Assembly (NCBI GenBank): GCA_005885025.1
Contig: VAYC01000014.1
Location: 1-27,350, forward strand
Origin: Actinomycetota bacterium
GTDB taxonomy: Bacteria > Actinomycetota > UBA4738
Reading direction: 5' to 3'
Length of the DNA: 27,350 nucleotides
Part shown: one piece after another, positions 1,928 through 27,064 of the stretch
How positions within the stretch are numbered: position 1 is the stretch's first letter
How the letters are laid out: each line of letters opens with the position of its first letter
Translations under genes and position numbers: made by a program
The notes under the pieces: generated by a model
What the model was told of the DNA's origin: nothing
Database searches by the model: none
Seen by the model: only the letters and a program-made list of their open reading frames with translations

Positions 1928-4069
1928 ATGGCACAGGCGGCACGGGAAGCGGTGAAGGGAACCGGAGGGGCCGGCAAGGCCCTGGTGATCCGGGAATACC
2001 CGCTCGTCCGCACTCGGAACATCGGGATCATGGCCCACATCGACGCGGGCAAGACCACCACGACCGAGCGGATCCTCTACTACACGGGCAAGTCCTACAA
2101 GGTCGGAGAGGTCCACGAGGGCACCGCCCAGATGGACTGGATGGTTCAGGAGCGCGAGCGCGGCATCACCATCACCTCGGCGGCCACGACCTGCCTGTGG
2201 AAGGACCACTGGATCAACATCATCGACACCCCCGGCCACGTGGACTTCACGGTGGAGGTGGAGCGGTCGCTCCGAGTGCTCGACGGCGCGGTGGCGATCT
2301 TCGACGCGGTGGCGGGCGTGGAGCCCCAGAGCGAGACCGTGTGGCGGCAGGCCGACCGCTATCACGTCCCCAGGATCTGCTTCGTGAACAAGATGGACCG
2401 GGTGGGGGCGGACTTCGAGCGGACCGTCCAGATGATCGAAGAGCGTCTGCACGCCACCCCCCTGGTGATCCAGCTCCCCTGGGGCGTGGAGTCCTCCTTC
2501 ATCGGAGTGATCGACCTCATCGAGATGAAGGGTCTGCGGTGGGCGGAAGGGATGGGCGAGTCTTGGGAGACGGTAGAGATCCCCGAGGAGCTCCGGGCGA
2601 AGGCCGAGGAATGGAGGCACCGGCTGTTCGAGCGCCTCGCGGACCACGACCCCGAGCTGATGGAGAAGTACGTCCACGGGGGAGAGCCGACGTCCGAGGA
2701 GCTGCGGCGCGCCCTTCGCAAGGCCACGCTCGAGGTGACGGGGACCCCCGTGCTGTGCGGCTCAGCTTTCAAGAACAAGGCCATCCAGCCGCTGCTGGAC
2801 GCCGTCGTGGCGTTGCTCCCCTCGCCGGTCGACGTGCCGCCCGTGCGCGGGGTCGACCCGGAGACCGGTGAGGAGGCCATTCGAGAGGCCAGCGACGAAG
2901 AGCCTTTCTCGGCCCTCGCGTTCAAGATCATGTCCGACCCCTTCGTGGGCCGGCTCACCTACATCCGCGTGTACTCGGGGATCCTCCGGACGGGCGCCCA
3001 CATCCAGAACTCCACAAGGGACCGGAAGGAGCGGATCGGCCGGATCCTCCAGATGCACGCCAACCACCGGGAGGACATGGAGGCCGCGTTCACCGGGGAT
3101 ATCGTGGCGGTAGTCGGGCTCAAGCACACCACCACGGGCGATACGCTGTGCGACCCAGCCAACCCCATCGTCCTCGAGTCGATGCAGTTCCCAACCCCGG
3201 TGGTGTCCGTGGCCATCGAGCCGAAGACCAAGGCCGATCAGGACAAGCTGTCCAGCGCGCTGGGCCGGCTGGCCGACGAGGACCCCACGTTCGTGGTGAA
3301 GGTCAACGACGAGACCGGCCAGACGTTGATATCGGGCATGGGGGAGCTGCACCTCGAGGTGCTCGTCGACCGCCTGACCCGCGAATTCAACGTGGGTGCC
3401 AACGTCGGAAAGCCTCAGGTGGCATACCGGGAGACGATCCGCAAGGCCCTCCACAAGGTCGAAGCCAAGTACATCCGCCAAACCGGCGGTCGCGGGCAGT
3501 ACGGCCACGTGGTCATCGACCTGGAGCCGCTCGGATCGGGCGGCGGCTACGAGTTCGTCAACAAGATCGTGGGCGGGACCATCCCCAGGGAGTACATCCC
3601 GTCGGTCGACCAGGGCATCCAGGAAGCGATGGAGTCCGGCGTGGTGGCCGGATACCCGATGGTCGACATCCGGGCCACACTGATCGACGGGTCCTACCAC
3701 GAGGTGGACTCCTCGGAGATCGCCTTCAAGATCGCAGGGCAGATGGCGTTCCGCGAAGGCGCCCGGAGAGGCGACCCGGTCCTGCTCGAGCCGGTCATGG
3801 AGTTCGAGATCCTCACCCCGGAGGAGTTCATGGGTGACGTCATGGGCGACGTGACGTCCCGCCGGGGCCGGATCGAGCACATCGACGAGCGGTCCGGGAT
3901 GCGGGTGATCCGCGTGGTTGTCCCACTGGCTGAGCTGTTCGGCTATGCCACCGACCTGCGGTCCAGAACTCAGGGCCGAGCTTCACACACGCCCATGCAG
4001 CTGCATGCCTACCAGGAGGTCCCGGCCCAGATCTCGCGGGAGATCGTGGCCCGAGTCCGAGGGGAGTAG
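1928..4069 (+). CDS. fusA: Elongation factor G (start at ATG 1928 or GTG 1985)
   Basis: [40 protein letters not shown] and [13 protein letters not shown]. Start uncertain: 1928 has GAGGA upstream, while 1985 matches the usual EF-G N-terminus. Confidence 0.98.
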
Positions 4070-17058: not shown

Positions 17059-17820
17059 ATGATCATCTTCAAGTCGCCCGAAGAGATAGGCCGGATGCGC
17101 CAGGCCGGGCGTGTCGTCGCGACGACCATCGACCAGCTTCTGGCCGCGGTCCGCCCCGGCCTCACCACCGAGGACCTGGACCGCCTGGCGGAAGAGTTCA
17201 TCCGCGACCAGGGGGCGGTGCCGTCCTTCAAGGGTTACCGAGGTTTCCCCGGGACGATCTGCACCTCGCTCAACCACGAGGTCGTGCACGGAATCCCCAG
17301 TCCCACACGCGCGCTCATTCCTGGCGACGTGCTGAAGCTCGACGTGGGGGCGGTGTGGGACGGCTACCATGCGGACTCGGCCGTCAGCGTGTTCGTGGCC
17401 GGGGCCCCTTCCGAGGAAGCCGAGAAGCTCGTCCGGGCTACGGAGGAGTCACTGGAGGCTGGGATCGCCGCTCTCCGATCGGGGGCCAGGCTGTCGGACG
17501 TCGGCCACGCCGTCCAGCAGGTTGCGGAGGGAGCGGGCTTCAGCTGCGTCCGCGAATACGCCGGCCACGGCGTGGGGCGGGCGCTGCACGAAGACCCTCA
17601 AGTCCCCAACTACGGGGACCCTGGCAGGGGGCCGGTCGTCAAGCCGGGGCTGGTCGTGGCCATCGAGCCGATGGTGAATGTGGGCACGTGGCGAACCCGG
17701 GTGCTGCGTGACCATTGGACGGTGGTCACGGCTGACGGCAGTCTCTCCGCGCATTTCGAACATACCATCGCCGTGACCGAGGACGGGACGGAGGTCCTGA
17801 CGGCTCGTCCGGCGGCCTGA
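17059..17820 (+). CDS. map: Type I methionine aminopeptidase
   Basis: MIIFKS, NHEVVHGIP, DGYHADSA, GHGVG..LHEDP, IEPM and SAHFEHT; start at ATG 17059. Confidence 0.98.
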   Translation: MIIFKSPEEIGRMRQAGRVVATTIDQLLAAVRPGLTTEDLDRLAEEFIRDQGAVPSFKGYRGFPGTICTSLNHEVVHGIPSPTRALIPGDVLKLDVGAVWDGYHADSAVSVFVAGAPSEEAEKLVRATEESLEAGIAALRSGARLSDVGHAVQQVAEGAGFSCVREYAGHGVGRALHEDPQVPNYGDPGRGPVVKPGLVVAIEPMVNVGTWRTRVLRDHWTVVTADGSLSAHFEHTIAVTEDGTEVLTARPAA

Positions 17821-17841
17821 TCGCCCGGCAGGGCAGCGCGC

Positions 17842-19701
17842 TTACGCGGTTCGGAGCGCCGGCCTTCCCGCCGGGACCCAGAATTCCACGGTGGTTCCCC
17901 CTTCGGAGAGGCTTCGGACCTCGCACCTTCCGCCCGCCATCTCCGCCCGCTCTCGCATCGACGTGAGCCCGAGGTGGCCGTCCGTGGACCGCAGCATCTC
18001 GGATGCGCTGATGCCGACGCCATTGTCCTGCACCCGAACGAGGAACCCGCCGTCCCGATCCTCCAGCCGAACCTCGACGCTGGTGGCCTTGGCGTGCTTG
18101 CGGACGTTGATGAGGGCTTCCTGGGCGATGCGATAGAGCGTTACGCGGGTCTCGTCCGATGGTTCACGTCGGAGCCGGCTGTCGACACGAAAATCCATGC
18201 CGGAATCGAGTTCTTTCGCATACTCGACGATGGCGGCGGCGAGTCCCTCCTCGTCGAGGGCCGACGGCCGGAGCTCGAAGATGAGCGTCCTCATGACATC
18301 GACCGCGCTCTGTATCCTTCCCACCGCTTGATCCAGGGACTCCGCGGCGGCTTTGGGATCGAGTGTGTCAAGCCGTCGCCGCAGCATCTCGAGCTGCATC
18401 CCGACCCCGACCATGAGCTGGACGGGGCCGTCGTGCACCTCGCGAGCGATGCGGTGCCTCTCTTCCTCCTCGGCGTTGACCAAGCGAGACAGCAGCCTTC
18501 GCCGCTGCCCGTCCACCACGCGGAGGTCTTCCAGGCTCTCCCTCAGCTCCTGGGTCCGCTTCTGGGCGAACATCTGCATTTCCAGAGCTCGGATCTCCTC
18601 CACCTGCTGCTGGATTTCCTCCAGCAGCCAAGCGTTGTGCAGGGCAAGCGCGGCATGACCAGCGCACTGCTCTACCAAGGTGACGATCCACCGCTTCATG
18701 TTGTCGCCCCTCCCGGGGAACTCCAGGACCAGGATCCCGAGCCGGGAGCCCTTCTCCAGGAAGAGGGGAACGATCAGCAGGTTCCTGGCCCCGGGGAGCA
18801 GCGTGTCCAGGCGCTGATCGGCCTGAGGGTCGAGTCCCCGCACGAGCTGGGTCTGGCGAGAGTTCCAGGCCAGCTCCATCACGTGGTCGAGGCCCTCCCG
18901 GATCTGTCCCGGCGATGCCGAGCCGCGATACGCCATGAGGGAAAGCGCTTCCACTCTTGGAGGCGAGGCCAGGACGGCTCCTCTGGTGAAGCCGAAGACC
19001 TCGGAGAGCCTCGTCAGCAGGGTCACCGGGATCTCCGAGGCCGAGCTGCGCTGGTCGATCTCCGACACGATCCCGGATACTCGCTCGAGGTCGAGCTTGT
19101 GGGTCCGCACCTCGCGCTCGCTGAGGGCGGAGCACGTGGCCGTGCCCAGGGCCACGGCCCAGAGCGCGGCGACGTTCAGCATCGAAACGAGGCGGAAGTT
19201 GTCTCCCCGGCCCGGCAGGGCGGAGAGGATCGTCTCTCGAACCTGCAGGATCCCCGCGCTCTGAGCGTAGAACGCAACGAACAGGAGGATTGAATGCCAC
19301 GCCGCGATCTTCAGGCCGGTGCGATAGGAGGCCAGCAGCGTGACCGCGACCACGTGCACGAACACGAGGAACCGGAGCGGGCTCTGGGCGCCGCCCGTCG
19401 CGTAGCTCACCCACGCCAGGTAGATGCCGTCCACGAGCAACGTCCCGCCGATCACGGGAAGCAGTTGGACCCGCCGCAGACGGCGGGTCAGCTCCGGAAC
19501 CGGGACGAGCAGCAGGTAGGCCCCCGTGGCCGCGCCCACGGCCAGCAGCGAGACGCCTCGGACCTCCGGAGCCAGGGTGCAGACGACGAGAACCACCGAG
19601 GCGAAGCCGATCCGCAGGACGCGCAGGTATTCCATGCGCTCGGCGATGGAGACGAGATCGCCGAAGGTTGGTCTCGCTCTCGAAGGAGCCGACAGGGTCA
19701 C
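17842..19701 (-). CDS. Membrane sensor histidine kinase: multi-TM N-terminus (PilS-like), GAF, HisKA_3 and HATPase
   Basis: H-box EERHRIAREVHDG, N-box EALINVRKHA, DNGVG, GHLGLTSMRER and GGTTV. GAF-like segment ending LLIVPL...LGILVL...AALALHNA. About 5-6 hydrophobic helices at the N-terminus. Confidence 0.92.
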   Translation of the reverse strand: MTLSAPSRARPTFGDLVSIAERMEYLRVLRIGFASVVLVVCTLAPEVRGVSLLAVGAATGAYLLLVPVPELTRRLRRVQLLPVIGGTLLVDGIYLAWVSYATGGAQSPLRFLVFVHVVAVTLLASYRTGLKIAAWHSILLFVAFYAQSAGILQVRETILSALPGRGDNFRLVSMLNVAALWAVALGTATCSALSEREVRTHKLDLERVSGIVSEIDQRSSASEIPVTLLTRLSEVFGFTRGAVLASPPRVEALSLMAYRGSASPGQIREGLDHVMELAWNSRQTQLVRGLDPQADQRLDTLLPGARNLLIVPLFLEKGSRLGILVLEFPGRGDNMKRWIVTLVEQCAGHAALALHNAWLLEEIQQQVEEIRALEMQMFAQKRTQELRESLEDLRVVDGQRRRLLSRLVNAEEEERHRIAREVHDGPVQLMVGVGMQLEMLRRRLDTLDPKAAAESLDQAVGRIQSAVDVMRTLIFELRPSALDEEGLAAAIVEYAKELDSGMDFRVDSRLRREPSDETRVTLYRIAQEALINVRKHAKATSVEVRLEDRDGGFLVRVQDNGVGISASEMLRSTDGHLGLTSMRERAEMAGGRCEVRSLSEGGTTVEFWVPAGRPALRTA

Positions 19702-19702
19702 G

Positions 19703-20335
19703 TCAGGCGAACTTGCGGACGTCCGGCGCGATGGGAGCTGATGCCAACTTGGGGTCCCGGCGGTCGAGTCGGTTCTGCACCATCAGGAACGCGACGACCA
19801 CGAGGGCCAGGGCGAGGGGGAAGGCCACCTGCTTGCCGGCTTCAGCGGCCGCCCCTCCGATCCGGCCGAAGAGGCTCGGCCCATCCGTGGTCCTCTCCGT
19901 GACCGGCCGAGACGAAGCGGGTGCCTGAGTGGAGGCTCCCGTGGTGGTGTCGCGGTTCAGTCCGCCGACCCCTGCAGATGTGGAGGTCGTTGCCGGCCGG
20001 CCGCTCGGAACGGTACCGCCCCCTCCCCGGTGACCGCCGCCGCCGGTAGGTGTTGGGGTTGGCGTTGGGGAAACGATCGGCTTGAGGATTCCGTCGACCA
20101 CATCGGTTGCCTGCTTGACTGCCGCGTCAGCCTTGTCCTTCACGCTGTTGGCGGTGTCGGTGGCGGTCTGCTTCGTTTGGTCGACATTGCAGGTGGGATC
20201 GGTGAGTGGACATTCGGCCAAAGCCACGGGGGCGGACACGGTCAAGCACACTCCGATGAACGCCATGATGACCAGTGATTTCCGAGCCGACTGGCGCGGT
20301 GAGAGCCTATTGCCCCTGAGTCCCTTGCCGTGCAT
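19703..20335 (-). CDS. Secreted, C-terminally membrane-anchored Pro/Thr/Gly-rich protein with DRRDPKL tail (210 aa)
   Basis: ATG at 20335 preceded by GGAGGAGG. Signal peptide ending VALA, CPLTDPTC, PTPTPTPT/GGGG linker, C-terminal TM (FPLALALVVVAFLMV), then QNRLDRRDPKLA. Stop lies 1 nt from the kinase start. Confidence 0.85.
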   Translation of the reverse strand: MHGKGLRGNRLSPRQSARKSLVIMAFIGVCLTVSAPVALAECPLTDPTCNVDQTKQTATDTANSVKDKADAAVKQATDVVDGILKPIVSPTPTPTPTGGGGHRGGGGTVPSGRPATTSTSAGVGGLNRDTTTGASTQAPASSRPVTERTTDGPSLFGRIGGAAAEAGKQVAFPLALALVVVAFLMVQNRLDRRDPKLASAPIAPDVRKFA

Positions 20336-20660
20336 CTGACGACCTCCTCCCGACCCCGATCGCCGATCTACAGCAACACCTAGAACCTGGTATCGACGTC
20401 CCTTCGGATCTGGCGTATCGGCCGTCCCGAGGATGTTGTCCCGCGCTCCCGATGATCCCAAAGTCTGCGAACGGCGTAGCTCGGATCGGTGGCACGCTGC
20501 GTCAGTGGGGGAGACCGCCCCTTCCGGTCGGTGGAGCCTCGCCACGGCGCGGACGGGCCTTCACGGCCGCTTCAGCCACCCGCCAGCTGCGCCGATGCCC
20601 CAATGGCCGGTCCCTGCGGGGCCGGCGCGGGCAGTCAGTGACCGCCAGGAAGGGCCCGAC

Positions 20661-23588
20661 ATGAAGCGCCGAGCGCGAACCCATTCGGGGACGGGACGGC
20701 TGATGGCCGTCCTGGTGGTCCTCGCCATGGTTCCCCTAGGCCTGCTCGCCTACTCGACGGTCCGGCTGTCGACCGGCGCAGTGAACAAGGAGGTACAGGC
20801 GCGGATCCGGTCCTCGGCGTCCCTCTCCGCGGGGGCCATCCAGAAGGAGATGCAGGGTGTGGTTGATCTGGTTGGGTCCTATGCGGAGCGCCCAACCCTG
20901 GTCTCCGCTCTTTCGGACCCGGCCAATTACGACCTCCAACAGATCGAGTTCCAGCTCGCTGATCTGGCGGACGCCCGCCCAGGGATCTCCGCAACCTTCG
21001 TTGCCGACCCCCAGGGGAGGCTGATCGACATCCTCCCACCCACCCCGTCGATCGTGGGGCAGGACTTCTCCTACCGCGATTGGTACCGGGGTCTCACAGG
21101 GATCGGCCGGACCTACGTGTCGACCGGCTACATGAGCCAGGCCACCGGCCATCCGCTGGTCGTCGGCGTGGCCACCTTCGTCCGGGCCTCCGGGGACCAG
21201 GAGGCGCCCGGCCAAACACGGGCCATCTTGGTAGCCGCCTACGGGCTCGAGGAGATCCAGGGGTTCGTGGACAAGTACGAGTCGTCCCAGGGCGTCAGCC
21301 TCACGGTCACGGACCAGCGCGGCAACGTCCTGGCTTCGCCCGGCGGCGGCCAGACTCTGACGTCGCGGGCCACCGATCCACTCGTGGTGGACGCCCTCAA
21401 GGGAAGGTCCGCCGTGACCACCGTTGGGAGGCCCTCGGGCCGGCTCGTCTCCGCCTACGAGCCCGTGCCTGAACTCGGCTGGACGGTGACGGCGAGCGTC
21501 CCGGAGCGGGTGGCCCTGGCGGGCGTCTCCCACCTTCGCTCCGCTGTGTTGCTCGTGGCGGCCATCCTGGCCATGGTGTTGGCAACGGGCCTGCTCCTGC
21601 TGGCACGTGCGCTGCGGGCCCGCGCGCAGGCCGAGGAGGGTCGGGCCCGCCTTGCGGCCATCGTGGAGTCCTCCGAAGACGCGATCATCGGAATCACGCT
21701 CGACGGAATCATCACCAGTTGGAACGTGGGGGCCGAACGCCTCTACTGGTACACCGCCAAAGAAGCTGTTGGCCAGGACATCTCGATCCTCGCCCCGCCC
21801 GACCGGAAGGACGAGGCGTCGCAAAACCTGGAGCGCATCCGGGAAGGTGAGCGGGTCGAGCAATTCGAGACGGTACGCGTGACGAAGGACGGGACGCCGC
21901 GCGATGTCTCGCTCACGAGCTCGTTGGTGCGCGATCGAAAGGGGGAGGTCGTCGGAGCCTCGGTGATCGCCCAGGACATCACCGCGCACAAGCAGATGGA
22001 GGATGCGGTCCGGGAATCCGAACAGAGGTACCGCCTGCTGGTCGAATCGGCTCAGGACATGGTCTTCACCTTGAGCCCGGAGGGCAAGTTCGTCTCACTG
22101 AACGCCGGATTCGAAGCCATGACCGGATGGAAGAGGGAGGACTGGATCGGCAAGGACTTCGGCCCCCTGATCCATCCGGAGGACCTCGAGGCAGCCAAGA
22201 TCCGCGTGGCCCAGATGCGGCTGGGCGAGCGACTCCCTCCCTTCCCGGTGAGGCTCGCGACCAGCTCCGGGGGTTGGCGAACCGCTGAGAGCGTCTCGAG
22301 CCCGCTGGTCACCGACGGCTCTGTCGTGCAGATCGTGGGAATCGTTCGCGACATCACCGAACGCAAACAGGCTGAGGAAGAGCTGCGCCGAGCCAGGAAC
22401 GAGGCCGAGCGCGCCAAGGAGGAGGCCGAGCAGGCGAGGGAAGGAGCCGAGCGCGCCAATCGGGCCAAGAGCGAGTTCCTGTCCCGGATGAGCCACGAGC
22501 TGCGGACACCCCTGAACGCGGTGCTCGGGTTCGGCCAGCTCCTCGAGATGGACAGCCTCAACCAGGAGCAGCACGAGGGCGTGGCTCAGATCCTCAAGGG
22601 CGGCCGACACCTCCTGGATCTGATCAACGAGGTCCTGGACATCGCCCGGATCGAGGTCGGCCGGATCGCGCTCTCCCTCGAGCCGGTGGCGGTGGATGAG
22701 TCCGTGCTCGGCGCGGTCGATCTCATCCGCCCGCTCGCGACAGAGCGTGGGATCCGCCTGGGCACCGAGATCTCGGAGTCGCAGGGGTACGTGACGGCGG
22801 ACCGCCAGCGCCTCAAGCAGGTTCTGTTGAACCTGCTGTCCAACGCCGTGAAGTACAACCGACCGGGGGGCTCAGTCGCCGTTCGATGCGTTCCGGTATC
22901 GGGCGGGCGGGCGCGGGTCGAGGTGGCCGACGACGGCCCCGGCATCGCCCCCGAGTACATGAGCCGGCTGTTCGTTCCTTTCGAGCGCTTGGGGGCCGAG
23001 ACCTCCGGCGTGGAAGGGACGGGCCTGGGCCTGGCCCTCTCCAAGCGCCTCGTCGAGGTCATGGGGGGGACCCTGGAGGTGGAGAGCGCGCCGGGCCGAG
23101 GCAGCACTTTCTCGGTGTCCCTGCCGGCCGCGGAGGGCCCCGAGTCCGGCCTCGAACGGGGCGGCTCGAAGGGCCTCGTGCTCGCCGCCCTGAACGGGGA
23201 GGGCACGATCCTCCACATCGAGGACAATCCGGCCAACCTCAAGCTCATCGAGCGGATCCTGTCGGGAGTGCGCGGGGTGAGGCTGCTCTCCGCGATGCAA
23301 GGGAGCCTCGGACTGGACATGGCCAGGCAGCATCGCCCCGACGTGATCCTGCTCGACCTCAACCTGCCCGACATCCAGGGGCAGGAGGTGCTCGGCCTCC
23401 TGCGCGCCGATCCCCGGACGAGAGACATCCCAGTCCTCGTGGTCAGCGCGGACGCCACCCCCGAGCAGCTTCGAAAGCTCCGGGCGGCCGGGGCCAAGGC
23501 GTACCTCACCAAACCGCTGGACGTTCAGCGCTTCCTCCGTGTAGTGGGCGAGGCCTTGAGCGAACGAAGGCTTGACCATGCGGGCTGA
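20661..23588 (+). CDS. Hybrid sensor kinase: TM-dCache-TM-PAS-PAS-HisKA-HATPase-REC
   Basis: Cache-like DFSYRDWY and VSAYEPV; two PAS repeats ending QDIT and RDIT; FLSRMSHELRTPLNAV; NLLSNAVKYN; EGTGLGL; REC IEDN...LLDLNLP...LTKP. ATG 20661 after AGGAAGG. Confidence 0.95.
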   Translation: MKRRARTHSGTGRLMAVLVVLAMVPLGLLAYSTVRLSTGAVNKEVQARIRSSASLSAGAIQKEMQGVVDLVGSYAERPTLVSALSDPANYDLQQIEFQLADLADARPGISATFVADPQGRLIDILPPTPSIVGQDFSYRDWYRGLTGIGRTYVSTGYMSQATGHPLVVGVATFVRASGDQEAPGQTRAILVAAYGLEEIQGFVDKYESSQGVSLTVTDQRGNVLASPGGGQTLTSRATDPLVVDALKGRSAVTTVGRPSGRLVSAYEPVPELGWTVTASVPERVALAGVSHLRSAVLLVAAILAMVLATGLLLLARALRARAQAEEGRARLAAIVESSEDAIIGITLDGIITSWNVGAERLYWYTAKEAVGQDISILAPPDRKDEASQNLERIREGERVEQFETVRVTKDGTPRDVSLTSSLVRDRKGEVVGASVIAQDITAHKQMEDAVRESEQRYRLLVESAQDMVFTLSPEGKFVSLNAGFEAMTGWKREDWIGKDFGPLIHPEDLEAAKIRVAQMRLGERLPPFPVRLATSSGGWRTAESVSSPLVTDGSVVQIVGIVRDITERKQAEEELRRARNEAERAKEEAEQAREGAERANRAKSEFLSRMSHELRTPLNAVLGFGQLLEMDSLNQEQHEGVAQILKGGRHLLDLINEVLDIARIEVGRIALSLEPVAVDESVLGAVDLIRPLATERGIRLGTEISESQGYVTADRQRLKQVLLNLLSNAVKYNRPGGSVAVRCVPVSGGRARVEVADDGPGIAPEYMSRLFVPFERLGAETSGVEGTGLGLALSKRLVEVMGGTLEVESAPGRGSTFSVSLPAAEGPESGLERGGSKGLVLAALNGEGTILHIEDNPANLKLIERILSGVRGVRLLSAMQGSLGLDMARQHRPDVILLDLNLPDIQGQEVLGLLRADPRTRDIPVLVVSADATPEQLRKLRAAGAKAYLTKPLDVQRFLRVVGEALSERRLDHAG
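22401..22463 (+). repeat. Three imperfect 21-nt repeats encoding heptads before the H-box
   Basis: EAERAKE / EAEQARE / GAERANR. Confidence 0.6.
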
Positions 23589-24204
23589 CGACGAGCTGAC
23601 GCAAGCCCGGATCCTGGTGGTCGATGATCAGGAAGCCAACGTCCGGCTCCTCGAGCGGATCCTCGAGCGCGCCGGGTACACGAACGTGGCCACGACCACG
23701 GACTCGCGCCAGGTCCTCGGCCTGTACGGAGAGCTCGACCCCGACCTCATCGTGCTGGACCTGCTCATGCCCCACATGGACGGGTTCGAAGTGATGGCGG
23801 AGCTGGGAAGGCGTGTCCCCGATGGGACCTACCTCCCCATCCTGGTCCTGACGGCGGACGCCACGCCGCAGGCCCGTCAGCGTGCGCTCTCGATGGGGGC
23901 CCGGGACTTCCTTACGAAGCCGTTCGACCACGACGAGGCGCTGTTGCGGATACGCAACCTCCTCGAGACGAGGTTCCTCCACCTTCGGCTCAAGGACCAG
24001 AACGAGGCCCTGGAGGAGAAGGTCCGCGAGCGGACCGAAGACCTGCAGAGAAGTTTCGAGGCGCTGCACCGGACCGCCGAGCAGCGAAAGACGCTGCTGG
24101 CCCACCTGGCCAAGGTCAATCGACTGGCCATGGCCGGCATGGAGGAGGCCGTGTCCGGCGAACAGGTGATCGGGGACGGGGACGGGGCAGGCGCAGGTGG
24201 CTGA
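23578..24204 (+). CDS. Response regulator: REC domain plus coiled coil, no recognisable output domain
   Basis: ILVVDDQ...IVLDLLMPHMDG...VLTAD...FLTKPF, then the EKVRERT helix. Overlaps the kinase stop. Start at ATG 23578 or TTG 23572. Confidence 0.93.
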   Translation: MRADDELTQARILVVDDQEANVRLLERILERAGYTNVATTTDSRQVLGLYGELDPDLIVLDLLMPHMDGFEVMAELGRRVPDGTYLPILVLTADATPQARQRALSMGARDFLTKPFDHDEALLRIRNLLETRFLHLRLKDQNEALEEKVRERTEDLQRSFEALHRTAEQRKTLLAHLAKVNRLAMAGMEEAVSGEQVIGDGDGAGAGG

Positions 24205-25537
24205 GGGCAACGTGGCCTCCGCCGGATCGGTCGTCGAGCTCGTCGACTGGCTCCGTCAGCTGGCCTCCAGTGAGGGATCAGATCTCCATATCAAGGTGGG
24301 ATCGCCGCCGGCGTTCCGGGAAGGCGGCCAACTGCGTCGGCTAGAACACCCGCCGGTCGGAGGCCAGGAGGTCGAACGGTTGGCCGAGGCTATCGTCCCG
24401 CCCAACCGGAAGGCGCGCTTCGACGAGGAAGGAGAGGTGGACTTTGCCCACACCGTCCCCGGCGTCGGCCGGTTTCGGGCCAACGTCTTCCGGCAGCGGG
24501 GAGGCATCAGCATGGTCTTCCGGAGGCTCCGGACGGGGGGTCCCGGCTTCGAGGAGCTGGGACTCCCTCCGGTGGTCCGGAAGCTGGCCGACGAGGCCCG
24601 TGGCCTGGTCCTGGTCACGGGGCCGACCGGATCGGGGAAGACCACCACGCTCGCGGCCATGATCGAGTACATCAACCGGACCCGGCCGCTCCACGTCGTG
24701 ACCATCGAAGACCCCATCGAGGTCCTTCATAGCGACAAGGTGGCTTGGGTGAACCAGCGCGAAGTCGGCCAGGACTCCAGGAGCTTCCTCACCGCGCTGC
24801 GGGCGGCCCTCCGACAGGACCCCGACGTCATCCTGATCGGGGAGATGAGAGATACGGAGACCGTTCAGGCCGCCCTCCAGGCTGCCGAGACCGGCCATCT
24901 GGTCCTCTCCACGCTGCACACCGTGAACGCCAAGGAAACCGTGAACCGTTTGCTGGATTTTTTCCCTCCGTTTCAACAGCAGCAGATCCGCCTGACGCTG
25001 GCCGGCGCGCTCCGCGGCATCATCTGTCAGCGGCTGGTGCCCGGCACGGCGGGCGGGCGCGTGGTCTGTTTGGAGATCCTCGTCAACACCGGGCGGATCA
25101 CGGAACGGATCGTCAAGCCCGAGATCACCGCCGAGATCGAGGAGGTCATCGCCAAGGGCGAGCACTACGGTATGCGCACGTTCGATCAGTCGCTGCTGGA
25201 GCTGATCACGGTCGGGGACGTGTCGGTCGAGGAGGCGCTGGCGGCGGCCTCGGAGCCCCACGACCTGGAACTCGCCATCCAGCGGGCGGGGATCCCCATG
25301 ACGTCCCGGGGGGTCGGGCTGAGCTTCGAGCGCGACATCAAGCCGCTGTTCTCCGACGACGCCCGGACCCGGATCAACTGGAAGTTCGACTTGTGGGATT
25401 ACGAGAGCGTCAAAGCGAACATCTCCGAGATCCTCAAGCGCATGGAGAACGGCGACAGCCCCTTCGAAGAGGGGTGGACCGAGGACCGGGTGAAGGTCTT
25501 TCGCAGCTGGTTGCGGGAAGGCTTGATGGCCCCGTAG
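24197..25537 (+). CDS. pilT: PilT/PilU-family type IV pilus ATPase with an extra about 79-aa C-terminal domain
   Basis: SDLHIK, RFRANVF, Walker A GPTGSGKTT, TIEDPIE, Walker B ILIGEMRD, His box GHLVLSTLHT and GMRTFDQSL. Confidence 0.88.
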   Translation: MAEGNVASAGSVVELVDWLRQLASSEGSDLHIKVGSPPAFREGGQLRRLEHPPVGGQEVERLAEAIVPPNRKARFDEEGEVDFAHTVPGVGRFRANVFRQRGGISMVFRRLRTGGPGFEELGLPPVVRKLADEARGLVLVTGPTGSGKTTTLAAMIEYINRTRPLHVVTIEDPIEVLHSDKVAWVNQREVGQDSRSFLTALRAALRQDPDVILIGEMRDTETVQAALQAAETGHLVLSTLHTVNAKETVNRLLDFFPPFQQQQIRLTLAGALRGIICQRLVPGTAGGRVVCLEILVNTGRITERIVKPEITAEIEEVIAKGEHYGMRTFDQSLLELITVGDVSVEEALAAASEPHDLELAIQRAGIPMTSRGVGLSFERDIKPLFSDDARTRINWKFDLWDYESVKANISEILKRMENGDSPFEEGWTEDRVKVFRSWLREGLMAP

Positions 25538-25555: not shown

Positions 25556-27064
25556 TCAGGCGCTCCGCCCGTCGGCCTGCTCCAACAGCTCGGTAACGGT
25601 CTCGGCGGCCGCGGGCCGGGCGAAGTAGTACCCCTGGGCCAGCCTGCATCCCAGCGCCAACAGGTGGGCCCGCTGTTCGGCCCGTTCGACGCCCTCGGCC
25701 ACCGTCTCCAGCCCCAGGCTGTGCACCAGGCGGATGATCCCTCGGGCCAGCGTCCACTCCTCGCTCCCGGTGGCCACGCCCGCCACGAAGGATCGGTCGA
25801 TCTTCACCACGTCCACCGGCAATCGGCGCAGGTAGCTCAAGGAAGAGAACCCGATACCGAAGTCGTCGATGGCCAGCCGCACTCCCAGGCCCCTCAGCGC
25901 CCGCAGCACCGAGATCGTCGCTTCGGTGTCCTGCATCAATACGGTCTCGGTGATCTCGAGTGTCAGGCTGGCCGGATCGAGACCGAACGCTTCGACCGCG
26001 GCCCGGACATCCCTCAGCAGATCGGGGTCCTGGAGCTGCCGGGCGGAGATGTTGACGCTGATGGCGAGGGGTTGCTCTGACGGGAACCGCTGCTGCCACG
26101 ACCTCAGTTGCCGGCATGCCTCCGCCGTGACCCATCGATCCATGGCGACGATCAGGCCCGCTTCCTCGGCGAGCGGGATGAAGTCCGCCGGGGAGATCAT
26201 GCCGCGCTCCGGATGCATCCAACGGATGAGGGCCTCCGTGCCGACGATCCGGCCGTCGGTCAGGCGCACGACCGGCTGGTAATGGAGGACGAACTCCCTC
26301 CGTTCGAGAGCTCGCCTGAGCTCGGTCAGGAGCTCGAACCGCTTCAGCAGGGCGACGTGACGATCATGCTGATAGACCTCGTACCGGCGCCTGCCGGCTC
26401 GCTTGGCCGCACCCATCGCGGCGTCCGCGTCGCTCACGATCGACCTGCCGTCTTTGGATCCGTCCGGGAACTGGGTGATGCCGATGCTCGCGTCGACGAA
26501 CACCTCTCTTCCCTGGACCGGGAACGCGGCCCCAAGTCGGTCGAGGACTCGGTCGGCCACCTGCGTCGCCTCCGGGATGCCCGCATCCACGAGCAGCATG
26601 GCGAACTCGTCTCCATCCAAGCGGGCAACCGAGTCCGCGGCCCGCAGGCAGCCACGTAGCCGCTGGCCCACTTCGACCAGGACGCGATCCCCGGCGCTTT
26701 GCCCGAAGGCATCGTTCACGCTGTTGAAGCCGTCGAGGTCAACCACCAGGACGGCGACGGGCCGGCCCCGACGCTTCGTGCCTGCGACAGCATGGTCCAC
26801 GCGGTCGAGGAACAGCGTGCGGTTGGGAAGCTGGGTGAGTGGGTCGTACAGGGCCTGCTGGCGCATCTCCCGCTCGAGTCGCCGGCGGTCCATCCTCGCG
26901 CCTGCCCACACGCCGACCAAGCAGATGCCGAGGAAGGTAACGGCCGCACCTTTGCCCCACCCGCCTGCGGGCCACAGGTAGGAGAGGACGGTCAGGGCAA
27001 CGCCGGCTCCGAGGAACCCGGTGGAGACGCTGGGGCGCAACCGGCGAAGCCCGCGGTCAGCCAT
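25556..27064 (-). CDS. Two-TM GGDEF-EAL protein (degenerate DGDEF, intact EAL); putative c-di-GMP phosphodiesterase
   Basis: YDPLTQLPNR, DLDGFNSVND, RAAD I-site and DGDEF; EAL, VNIS, EITE, DDFGIGFSS, KIDRSF, AEGVE and QGYYF. Confidence 0.93.
   Translation of the reverse strand: MADRGLRRLRPSVSTGFLGAGVALTVLSYLWPAGGWGKGAAVTFLGICLVGVWAGARMDRRRLEREMRQQALYDPLTQLPNRTLFLDRVDHAVAGTKRRGRPVAVLVVDLDGFNSVNDAFGQSAGDRVLVEVGQRLRGCLRAADSVARLDGDEFAMLLVDAGIPEATQVADRVLDRLGAAFPVQGREVFVDASIGITQFPDGSKDGRSIVSDADAAMGAAKRAGRRRYEVYQHDRHVALLKRFELLTELRRALERREFVLHYQPVVRLTDGRIVGTEALIRWMHPERGMISPADFIPLAEEAGLIVAMDRWVTAEACRQLRSWQQRFPSEQPLAISVNISARQLQDPDLLRDVRAAVEAFGLDPASLTLEITETVLMQDTEATISVLRALRGLGVRLAIDDFGIGFSSLSYLRRLPVDVVKIDRSFVAGVATGSEEWTLARGIIRLVHSLGLETVAEGVERAEQRAHLLALGCRLAQGYYFARPAAAETVTELLEQADGRSA

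Follow-up and report, generated by a model that had tools for sequence, protein, structure and literature searches.

Several histidine kinases with minimal outside loops need a membrane protein encoded in the same operon, as in LiaF-LiaS, BceAB-BceS and YycHI-WalK, and we know of none of these systems that switches between kinase and c-di-GMP outputs. Six-helix ‘membrane-only’ sensor domains mostly have, to our knowledge, no known signal, with PilS as the main exception. In the account given by PMC6058289, which cites PMC4889343, the six membrane segments of Pseudomonas aeruginosa PilS bind PilA. PleC likewise binds the PilA membrane helix (PMC7196804).

A surface protein gene lies directly upstream of a PilS-like sensor kinase gene

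We analysed a 27,350-nt stretch of contig VAYC01000014.1 from an Actinomycetota bacterium (hereafter the window). On its minus strand, a gene for a small predicted surface protein, which we call the partner, is followed by a sensor histidine kinase gene, with these features:

19703..20335, minus strand: partner gene, 210 aa; predicted exported single-pass type I membrane protein (open reading frame with Shine-Dalgarno sequence)
20216..20335, minus strand: partner signal peptide, residues 1-40, predicted from sequence, with cleavage after A-L-A
20189..20212, minus strand: C-x6-C loop (CPLTDPTC) at the mature N-terminus of the partner, from sequence
19775..19828, minus strand: partner membrane helix, about residues 170-187, from conserved columns, with one conserved face
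19706..19774, minus strand: partner cytoplasmic tail, conserved, N-R-L-D-R-R-D-P-K-L-A-x-A-P with F near the end
17842..19701, minus strand: sensor histidine kinase gene, 619 aa, GTG start 1 nt past the partner stop
19132..19647, minus strand: six-helix PilS-like membrane input domain, about residues 19-190 (PF25323, AlphaFold2, Foldseek)
18637..19020, minus strand: GAF-like domain, about residues 228-355 (GAF_2, E 2.3e-4, below cut-off)
18256..18462, minus strand: HisKA_3 dimerisation and phosphoacceptor domain, residues 414-482 (PF07730, 56.1 bits)
17869..18144, minus strand: HATPase_c catalytic domain, residues 520-611 (PF02518, 57.5 bits)

The partner gene starts with the ATG at 20335, preceded by GGAGGAGG, and stops with the TGA at 19705-19703, so that a single base (19702) separates it from the kinase GTG at 19701. 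No other start codon lies upstream of kinase residues 10-22, a segment conserved in every relative. A spacing of 1 nt points to translational coupling of the two genes, which would keep both proteins in step. A scan of positions 17700-20800 found neither promoter nor terminator.

The signal-peptide layout of the partner has its equivalent in the partners of relatives. Its C-x6-C loop is common to 14 of the 16 partners of kinase-type sensors and almost absent from those of GGDEF-type sensors. A low-complexity Thr/Pro/Gly stalk connects the loop to the membrane helix, after which comes QNRLDRRDPKLASAP...F. Sequence inspection of the partner, including the outer side of the helix, revealed no LPxTG, PEP or GG signature. 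Searches of Pfam and NCBIfam with E up to 1 returned chance-level matches only, and its Atlas neighbours are all unnamed.

The membrane domain of the kinase scores above the curated gathering cut-off of PF25323 (6TM_PilS), which is 27 bits: the full-length protein reaches 28.6 bits and residues 1-225 alone reach 31.5 bits. All 22 of the aligned relatives tested match the same family (best E-value 3.7e-11). An AlphaFold2 model of moderate confidence (mean pLDDT 69.8) places six helices before residue 217, joined by extracytoplasmic loops that are all of about 19 residues or less. In Swiss-Prot, the top Foldseek match was P. aeruginosa PilS (P33639) over residues 14-196, with a TM-score of 0.60, 22% identity and a modest E-value of 9e-3; the membrane domains of RegB, NarS and RpfC came next. 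The fold neighbours are the membrane parts of sensor kinases, cyclases and phosphodiesterases, and neither rhomboids nor exosortases are among them. The motif DGIYLAWVSYATGGAQSPLRFL corresponds to kinase residues 91-112 (19366-19431), and D91, S107, H116, S125, R127 and K131 are invariant polar residues of the domain.

The cytoplasmic part carries HisKA_3 and HATPase_c domains and has no match to PAS or HisKA (PF00512). The best NCBIfam models for the kinase core are MctS, MadS, UhpB, NarQ and NarX, with scores that all lie far under the equivalog cut-offs. For GAF, the kinase gives a weak match (GAF_2, 21.8 bits; cut-off 28.6), and the aligned region of P0007, a relative 65% identical to the kinase, exceeds the PF01590 cut-off. 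A preliminary description of the locus had proposed a 1-nt junction, the same motif position, five or six membrane helices without a large extracellular domain, a PilS-like membrane domain and a NarX/UhpB-class transmitter, and on each of these points our analysis agrees with it. Its order of GAF followed by HisKA_3 stands firmly for HisKA_3; the GAF domain is below threshold here and recognisable through the relative.

The kinase gene is the last of its operon and convergent with map. The nearby receiver genes all belong to a divergent operon and are without a sigma-54 activator domain. We found no GerE/LuxR-type DNA-binding domain on the contig, as expected from the earlier remark that the window holds no NarL-type regulator. 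The source genome is fragmented and has 16 GerE matches and 17 HisKA_3 matches, the kinase itself among them, so that no cognate regulator can be assigned. The datasets that contain the stretch are soil metagenome DNA from 14 studies, with no RNA dataset listed. A full-text literature search for 6TM_PilS found no paper.

Pairing is near-obligate and independent of the output domain

The preliminary description had further predicted that genes with a DRRDPKL tail consistently precede this membrane domain, also where its output is GGDEF. This prediction was borne out. In a profile search of 80 related loci, a tail gene lay just upstream of 78 of 82 sensor starts and a sensor followed 80 of 81 tails; a motif search recovered the pairing in 71 of 76 loci. 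The median gap was 24 nt, where the sensor was taken to begin with its tblastn match. One of the loci, L049, is labelled Solirubrobacteraceae. Sensors ended in a kinase at 17 of the 80 loci, in GGDEF at 38 and in GGDEF-EAL at 20, and pairing occurred with all types and also with output-less sensors. A version with GGDEF and HD-GYP exists as well (P0109), on a contig too short to reveal any partner. A GAF domain was fused in every case, and of the complete sensor sequences only two had no signalling output. The gene pairing is near-obligate, near-exclusive and independent of output type, and the kinase version described here is a minority branch (17/80 loci) of a family made up mostly of c-di-GMP enzymes.

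The same one-to-one relation held across genomes. The source genome has one tail and one sensor, and five large assemblies have tail-to-sensor counts of 2:2, 1:1, 1:1, 1:1 and 1:1, with each tail adjoining a sensor. In a sample of 401 genomes, all 22 tail-bearing genomes carry a sensor (E 1e-38 or better), a tally in which the unpublished genomes G006 and G053 are counted. In other genomes the pair is flanked by unrelated housekeeping genes. Since pairing is independent of output and the flanks are unrelated, what is constrained is the combination of the tail with the 6TM-GAF input module.

Tail and sensor co-diverged (Mantel r 0.72, permutation maximum 0.08), as adjacent genes are expected to do from shared descent alone; in tandem paralogous pairs, too, tail and sensor diverged in parallel. 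Locus L033 carries two paralogous pairs. Close sensor relatives without a partner occur in four lineages (L060/L079, L069/L074, G064 and G299), which means that the input domain can exist without one. All four have changes at otherwise invariant residues, for example in the S-Y-R-T-G-L-K loop, at F33 or in the TGG-x-x-SPLRF loop, and as these sensors are more divergent overall, the losses are a hint only.

A conserved helix face and tail are the constant part of the partners

The ectodomains of the partners are unrelated to one another: at one extreme they belong to no known family, at the other they contain eight Big_13 repeats. Elsewhere the outside part consists of Ig-like domain arrays of more than 1,000 residues; here it is the Cys loop and its Thr/Pro/Gly stalk. 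The connector is kept throughout: what is constant across partners is one helix face plus the tail, and the ectodomain varies freely by lineage. The face comprises F172, P173, L176, V180, F183, L184 and Q187 (F-P-x-x-L-x-x-x-V-x-x-F-L-x-x-Q). These conserved residues fall within a 120-degree arc, and the conservation moment peaks at 100 degrees (permutation fraction 0.0016). Such one-sided conservation argues for a specific helix partner.

The tail, about 23 residues on the cytoplasmic side, has invariant D191, D194, L197 and F209 and near-invariant P195, K196 and A200 in sets of 39 and 75 tails. The tail profile matches the partner with an E-value of 2.4e-23, its sole match in the genome. Tails of the DRRDPKL type occur in about 1,900 protein clusters and are C-terminal every time; ‘hypothetical protein’ was the sole name given to the clusters checked.

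Possible functions of the pair

We consider it most likely, with a probability of about 0.62, that the pair forms a split transmembrane receptor, in which a variable surface ‘antenna’ is docked in the membrane to a PilS-like hub. The partner would be exported via its cleavable signal peptide and kept by its C-terminal membrane helix, leaving some 23 residues in the cytoplasm. Judging from the exclusive pairing and the conserved face, the helix would bind the six-helix bundle of the neighbouring protein directly within the membrane, and the connector probably also contacts the cytoplasmic face of the bundle or the GAF domain. The activity of the output domain may then depend on whether the partner is present, on its amount or on its conformation; the preliminary description had proposed that the kinase would read the cleavage, tension or attachment of its partner. 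Docking, signal direction and stimulus are our inferences. In the present kinase this would be HisKA_3 autophosphorylation, passed on to an unlinked NarL-type regulator, and in most relatives synthesis or turnover of c-di-GMP. A complex prediction for sensor residues 1-225 and the 58-residue connector, each with its own alignment, scored 0.00, which counts neither for nor against binding.

An alternative explanation, which we regard as unlikely, is that the two genes are only co-regulated: with its 6TM or GAF domain the sensor would read a different signal, from the membrane or the cytoplasm, with no contact to helix or tail, would control the surface protein or merely be co-expressed with it, and the tail would serve localisation, insertion or turnover. 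GAF domains commonly bind small cytoplasmic ligands, partnerless sensors exist among the close relatives, and linked genes co-diverge in any case, all of which fits this explanation. It sits poorly with a tail that, within the genomes examined, occurs solely beside a 6TM-GAF input, whatever the output, whereas a general localisation or turnover signal should appear on several proteins per genome. Neither does it account for the one-sided conservation of the helix, and GGDEF outputs could not regulate transcription of the partner directly.

Two further explanations seem to us much less probable. The strictly C-terminal position of the signature on unrelated ectodomains is what one would see in a sorting signal such as LPXTG, PEP-CTERM or GlyGly-CTERM, in which case the partner would be a substrate rather than a signalling subunit and the six-helix domain, with its invariant polar residues, a processing enzyme or its recruiter. 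We think this very improbable: there is one tail per sensor, where an enzyme would have many substrates; the cytoplasmic tail is long (~23 residues) instead of a short basic cluster; no LPxTG or similar motif precedes the helix on the outside; and the membrane domain is that of a sensor family, has neither rhomboids nor exosortases among its fold neighbours, and invariably comes with a fused GAF domain and, except in two of the complete sensors, with an output. Slimmer still is the chance that the pair belongs to a type IV pilus-like surface-sensing island, with the kinase sensing a pilus-related component as true PilS does. The idea comes from genes that adjoin the pair in the window, encoding a dCache-PAS hybrid kinase, a receiver-only regulator, a PilT-family ATPase and a GGDEF-EAL protein, and from the closest relative, L002, which also has a PilT-like gene beside the pair. 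L002 is the only such locus of 80, none of the other window neighbours recurs at a comparable position, and elsewhere the pair stands alone amid housekeeping genes. Matches to the hybrid kinase and GGDEF-EAL queries were partial, fell inside the sensors’ own output domains, or lay in one partnerless locus. The partner, with its type I signal peptide and C-terminal anchor, is no pilin. As the PilT-like neighbour is shared by L002 alone, we rejected linkage to a PilT-like gene and a hybrid kinase as a general feature.

On sequence grounds, the two genes make up a conserved signalling unit that had not been catalogued and that occurs in uncultured soil bacteria. It adds a family of ~1,900 protein clusters, nameless in Pfam and NCBIfam, whose sole constant, helix-plus-tail, has an almost one-to-one genetic link to a PilS-like input domain. 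If the proposed docking in the membrane is correct, the PilS principle of a kinase reading a single-pass protein in the membrane would reach beyond pilins, one input could feed either a phosphorelay or c-di-GMP, and there would be a simple and testable rule for how uncultured soil bacteria link surface proteins, possibly adhesins, to intracellular signalling. The compact pair of a 58-residue connector and a 225-residue domain would then suit two-hybrid, nanodisc and structural work. A broader version of the split-receptor reading, to which we give even odds as a whole, is that soil monoderms (uncultured Actinomycetota and Limnocylindria-type Chloroflexota) share a universal connector that has not been described before. 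It would allow surface proteins as different as short stalks and giant adhesin-like proteins with Ig repeats to be exchanged for one another on a PilS-like 6TM-GAF hub that drives phosphorelay or c-di-GMP turnover, and co-diverged connectors would insulate paralogous pairs in one cell.

Comparison with known systems

The kinase shares its HisKA_3 and HATPase_c transmitter core with the NarX/NarQ/UhpB/DesK class, from which it differs in its input module and in having no NarL-type regulator adjacent. LiaF-LiaS, BceAB-BceS and YycHI-WalK resemble the pair in combining, within one operon, a small-loop kinase and a separately encoded membrane protein, and LiaS is also of the HisKA_3 class, its model being matched weakly by the kinase core here. 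In contrast, LiaS, BceS and WalK have two membrane helices, and their partners come from other families without a shared C-terminal connector.

PleC-PilA of Caulobacter crescentus is similar in that the helix of a single-pass protein is the input of a c-di-GMP-controlling kinase (PMC7196804). In PleC, however, a pair of membrane helices flanks a periplasmic domain and there is no six-helix bundle; PleC also has a pilin as its partner, and the two genes are not obligate neighbours.

The closest parallel is PilS-PilA, with a six-helix input of the same Pfam family (PF25323), no large outside domain and, as we propose here and as the account in PMC6058289 and PMC4889343 has it for PilS, a single-pass membrane protein read by its helix in the membrane. 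We considered the kinase as a PilS orthologue and rejected this on three grounds: it lacks PAS and HisKA, no PilR gene adjoins it, and its partner is no pilin. PilS has PAS and HisKA domains where the present kinase has GAF-like and HisKA_3 domains, and neither PilR nor a sigma-54 regulator is found near the pair. With its 40-residue type I signal peptide, C-terminal anchor and 23-residue tail, the partner has a topology opposite to that of pilin; the analogy to PilA is therefore functional, not homologous. Finally, where PilS phosphorylates a regulator, most members of the present family make or break c-di-GMP.

Organization of the partner and kinase genes

The kinase gene lies behind a gene for an exported protein of 210 residues (the partner) and is convergent with a methionine aminopeptidase gene.

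Features of the partner and kinase genes
19703-20335, -: partner gene, 210 codons, ATG 20335 to TGA 19705-19703, with GGAGGAGG before the ATG
17842-19701, -: kinase gene, 619 codons, GTG 19701 to 17842, the GTG one base past the partner TGA
Partner, signal peptide: 40 residues, ending A-L-A
Partner, C-x6-C loop: CPLTDPTC
Partner, middle: Thr/Ala/Asp-rich segment, then Pro/Thr/Gly stalk
Partner, ~residues 170-187: hydrophobic helix
Partner, tail: QNRLDRRDPKLASAPIAPDVRKFA
Kinase, residues 414-482: HisKA_3
Kinase, residues 520-611: HATPase_c

Judging from the reading frame, GTG 19701 must be the kinase start, because it is the first start codon in frame and the downstream residues 10-22 are conserved in all relatives. 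The partner had no matches in Pfam or NCBIfam. Six helices are predicted in kinase residues 1-217, with a longest outside loop of ~19 residues, followed by a GAF-like region that scores below the cut-off here and passes it in a 65%-identical relative. This confirms the arrangement reported in a preliminary description of the sequence (1-base spacing, about 5-6 helices, GAF, HisKA_3), whose coordinates for the membrane motif (19366-19431) were exact. DNA near-identical to window 17842-20335 is found in soil metagenome runs from 14 studies, and the source organism therefore appears widespread in soils.

The membrane domain had also been called PilS-like, and it is so by two independent routes, sequence comparison and predicted structure. 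Pfam PF25323 (6TM_PilS; curated cut-off 27 bits) covers kinase residues 62-190, scoring 28.6 bits with the whole protein and 31.5 bits with residues 1-225 alone, and was found in all 22 aligned relatives (best E 3.7e-11). An AlphaFold2 model of residues 1-225, of moderate confidence (mean pLDDT 69.8), had P. aeruginosa PilS residues 14-196 as its top match among reviewed-protein structures (TM-score 0.60, 22% identity across 201 aligned residues, E 9e-3), followed by the membrane domains of RegB, a Chloroflexus kinase, M. tuberculosis NarS and RpfC. Protein-language-model neighbours were 6TM_PilS and MASE-type membrane sensor domains. The kinase belongs both to the 6TM_PilS domain family and to the HisKA_3 class of kinases. 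It was ruled out as a PilS orthologue, being without PAS, HisKA, PilR or a pilin partner. A full-text literature search by the family name ‘6TM_PilS’ alone returned no paper.

The partner and the sensor occur as a pair

Searching a species-representative genome collection with an alignment of 22 sensor N-termini gave 359 relatives, from which we retained 80 loci, every one belonging to uncultured Actinomycetota or to Chloroflexota of the Limnocylindria type. In a motif search, a same-strand ORF ending in a membrane helix plus a DRRDPKL-type cytoplasmic tail preceded the sensor in 71 of the 76 loci with sufficient upstream DNA, and the median distance from the ORF end to the start of the sensor tblastn match was 24 nt. 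Profile searches bore out the predicted adjacency from both sides: the tail precedes 78/82 sensor starts, and a sensor lies downstream of 80/81 tails. The sole tail without a sensor directly after it (L044:105-884) is in tandem with another tail gene (885-1817), with one sensor behind both. The source genome (89.6% complete) has one match each to the tail profile and PF25323, and in five megabase-contig assemblies the tail:sensor counts are 2:2, 1:1, 1:1, 1:1 and 1:1, adjacent every time. Across an even sample of the phylum (401 genomes), the tail occurs in 22, all 22 with a strong sensor match (20/20 without the unpublished G006 and G053, which these tallies include); just two genomes lack the tail yet give a strong sensor match. 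By these counts the pairing is obligate and exclusive, or nearly so. There is no conserved third gene, and pairs in other genomes lie alone among unrelated housekeeping genes (flanked, for example, by dtd and relA or by argC and def). At one locus (L035, G001:C6:1651660-1652356), the sensor of one of the two pairs of genome G001 is split between two matches in different reading frames, pointing to a frameshift or an assembly error.

Outputs attached to the sensor input
GGDEF: 38/80 loci
GGDEF-EAL: 20/80 loci
HisKA_3 kinase: 17/80 loci
No output: 2/80 loci (L002, L007)
Sensor frame ended by contig end ahead of any output: 3/80 loci

The tail gene was found with every output type, so the constraint joins the tail to the input module, six membrane helices plus GAF (6TM-GAF). 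Adjacency with GGDEF and HD-GYP versions had also been proposed; it holds for GGDEF and GGDEF-EAL, and the one form with GGDEF plus HD-GYP is on a contig too short to reveal a partner. The output-less sensors of the closest relatives (L002:4001-5206, 402 residues; L007:1064-2221, 385 residues) consist of 6TM and GAF alone and still sit behind a tail-bearing partner. Directly downstream in L002, on the opposite strand, are adk and a PilT-like gene 74% identical to that of the window.

A constant connector with a conserved face

The outside parts of the partners are not conserved: the shortest are low-complexity stalks of ~150 residues, some are ~450-residue domains of no known family, and the largest partners, longer than 1,000 residues, contain as many as eight Ig-like Big_13 repeats. 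The C-x6-C loop is a subtype feature (14/16 kinase-type partners, 2/2 output-less, 1/31 GGDEF, 0/19 GGDEF-EAL). Among 1.84 billion representative proteins, a 58-residue tail profile matched 1,938 clusters at E <= 0.001 and 925 at E <= 1e-10, at the C-terminus or a few residues short of it in all matches listed. Six tail proteins that we looked up were named ‘hypothetical protein’ (three) or had no name (three), and neither Pfam nor NCBIfam has an entry for the connector, i.e. membrane helix plus tail.

In 75 distinct tails, the near-invariant residues are F, P, L, V, F, (L) and Q in the helix, D, (R, R), D, P, K, L, A and (P) after it, and an F two residues before the protein end. The conserved helix residues are confined to a 120-degree arc, and their conservation moment is greatest at 100 degrees per residue and surpasses all but 0.16% of permutations. 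Such one-sided conservation would be expected of a helix packed on a specific partner, unlike a plain anchor. Tail and sensor distances are correlated (Mantel r 0.72; permutation maximum 0.08), as is expected of linked genes, which co-diverge in any case; paralogous pairs tell more. In one clade the unit is duplicated in tandem, in the order partner-sensor-partner-sensor (L033, L034, L037, L038, L040, L051; in L033 at 3-533, 551-1243, 2138-3250 and 3301-4005). Both proteins form two orthologous groups, with tail and sensor diverging in parallel (paralogues within one genome differ by 25-29% in tails and 26-33% in sensors), a pattern consistent with insulation between paralogous pairs. Close sensor relatives that have no partner, in four lineages (L060, L079, L069, L074; L083 on G064:C2, L084 on G299:C22), are each altered at residues that do not vary among partnered sensors (F33, Y-A-Q and the loops TGG-x-x-SPLRF and S-Y-R-T-G-L-K), but their sequences are also more divergent overall.

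The tail's exclusivity and the conserved helical face are hard to square with an operon that serves only co-expression or regulation of proteins that make no contact. Several findings contradict the idea that the helix and tail are a sorting or processing signal: tail and sensor are matched one to one, the cytoplasmic tail is long as well as conserved, no signature is present on the outer side, and the membrane domain has sensors as its fold neighbours instead of rhomboids or exosortases. The pair could also form a larger unit, a pilus-related island, with these other genes of the window:

20658-25537, +: divergent operon with overlapping gene ends; its first gene encodes a hybrid kinase (dCache-PAS-PAS-HisKA-HATPase-REC)
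23572-24204, +: receiver-only regulator
24197-25537, +: PilT-family ATPase
25556-27064, -: GGDEF-EAL protein, convergent with the PilT-like gene

However, the PilT-like neighbour is seen again solely in the closest relative. No pilin, PilB or PilC genes were seen in the window. The GGDEF-EAL part encoded here shares 40-46% identity with the output regions of the sensor family's Chloroflexota members.

A probable split receptor and its precedents

Partner and sensor most likely constitute a split receptor. Of this reading, the analysis shows the anatomy, the input-domain homology, the pairing and its independence of output type, and the one-sided helix conservation, whereas contact between the proteins, the surfaces involved and the signalling direction are inferred. 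A variable extracytoplasmic ‘antenna’ would be held by the constant connector, which may dock onto the PilS-like 6TM-GAF hub both in the membrane and at the cytoplasmic face. The output would then depend on how much antenna is present or on its state, the stimulus perhaps being ligand, attachment, shedding or stoichiometry. The contig carries no GerE-type domain, in agreement with the earlier remark that the window has no NarL-type regulator; the fragmented genome has 16.

As summarized in PMC6058289, citing Kilmury and Burrows 2016 (PMC4889343), the six membrane segments of PilS bind PilA directly, and in Caulobacter the PilA membrane helix is bound by PleC (PMC7196804). By analogy, the pair described here probably works like PilS-PilA. 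It differs in that the partner is non-homologous to PilA, has the opposite topology and carries a dedicated conserved connector, and in that the outputs of the sensor family are mostly c-di-GMP enzymes.
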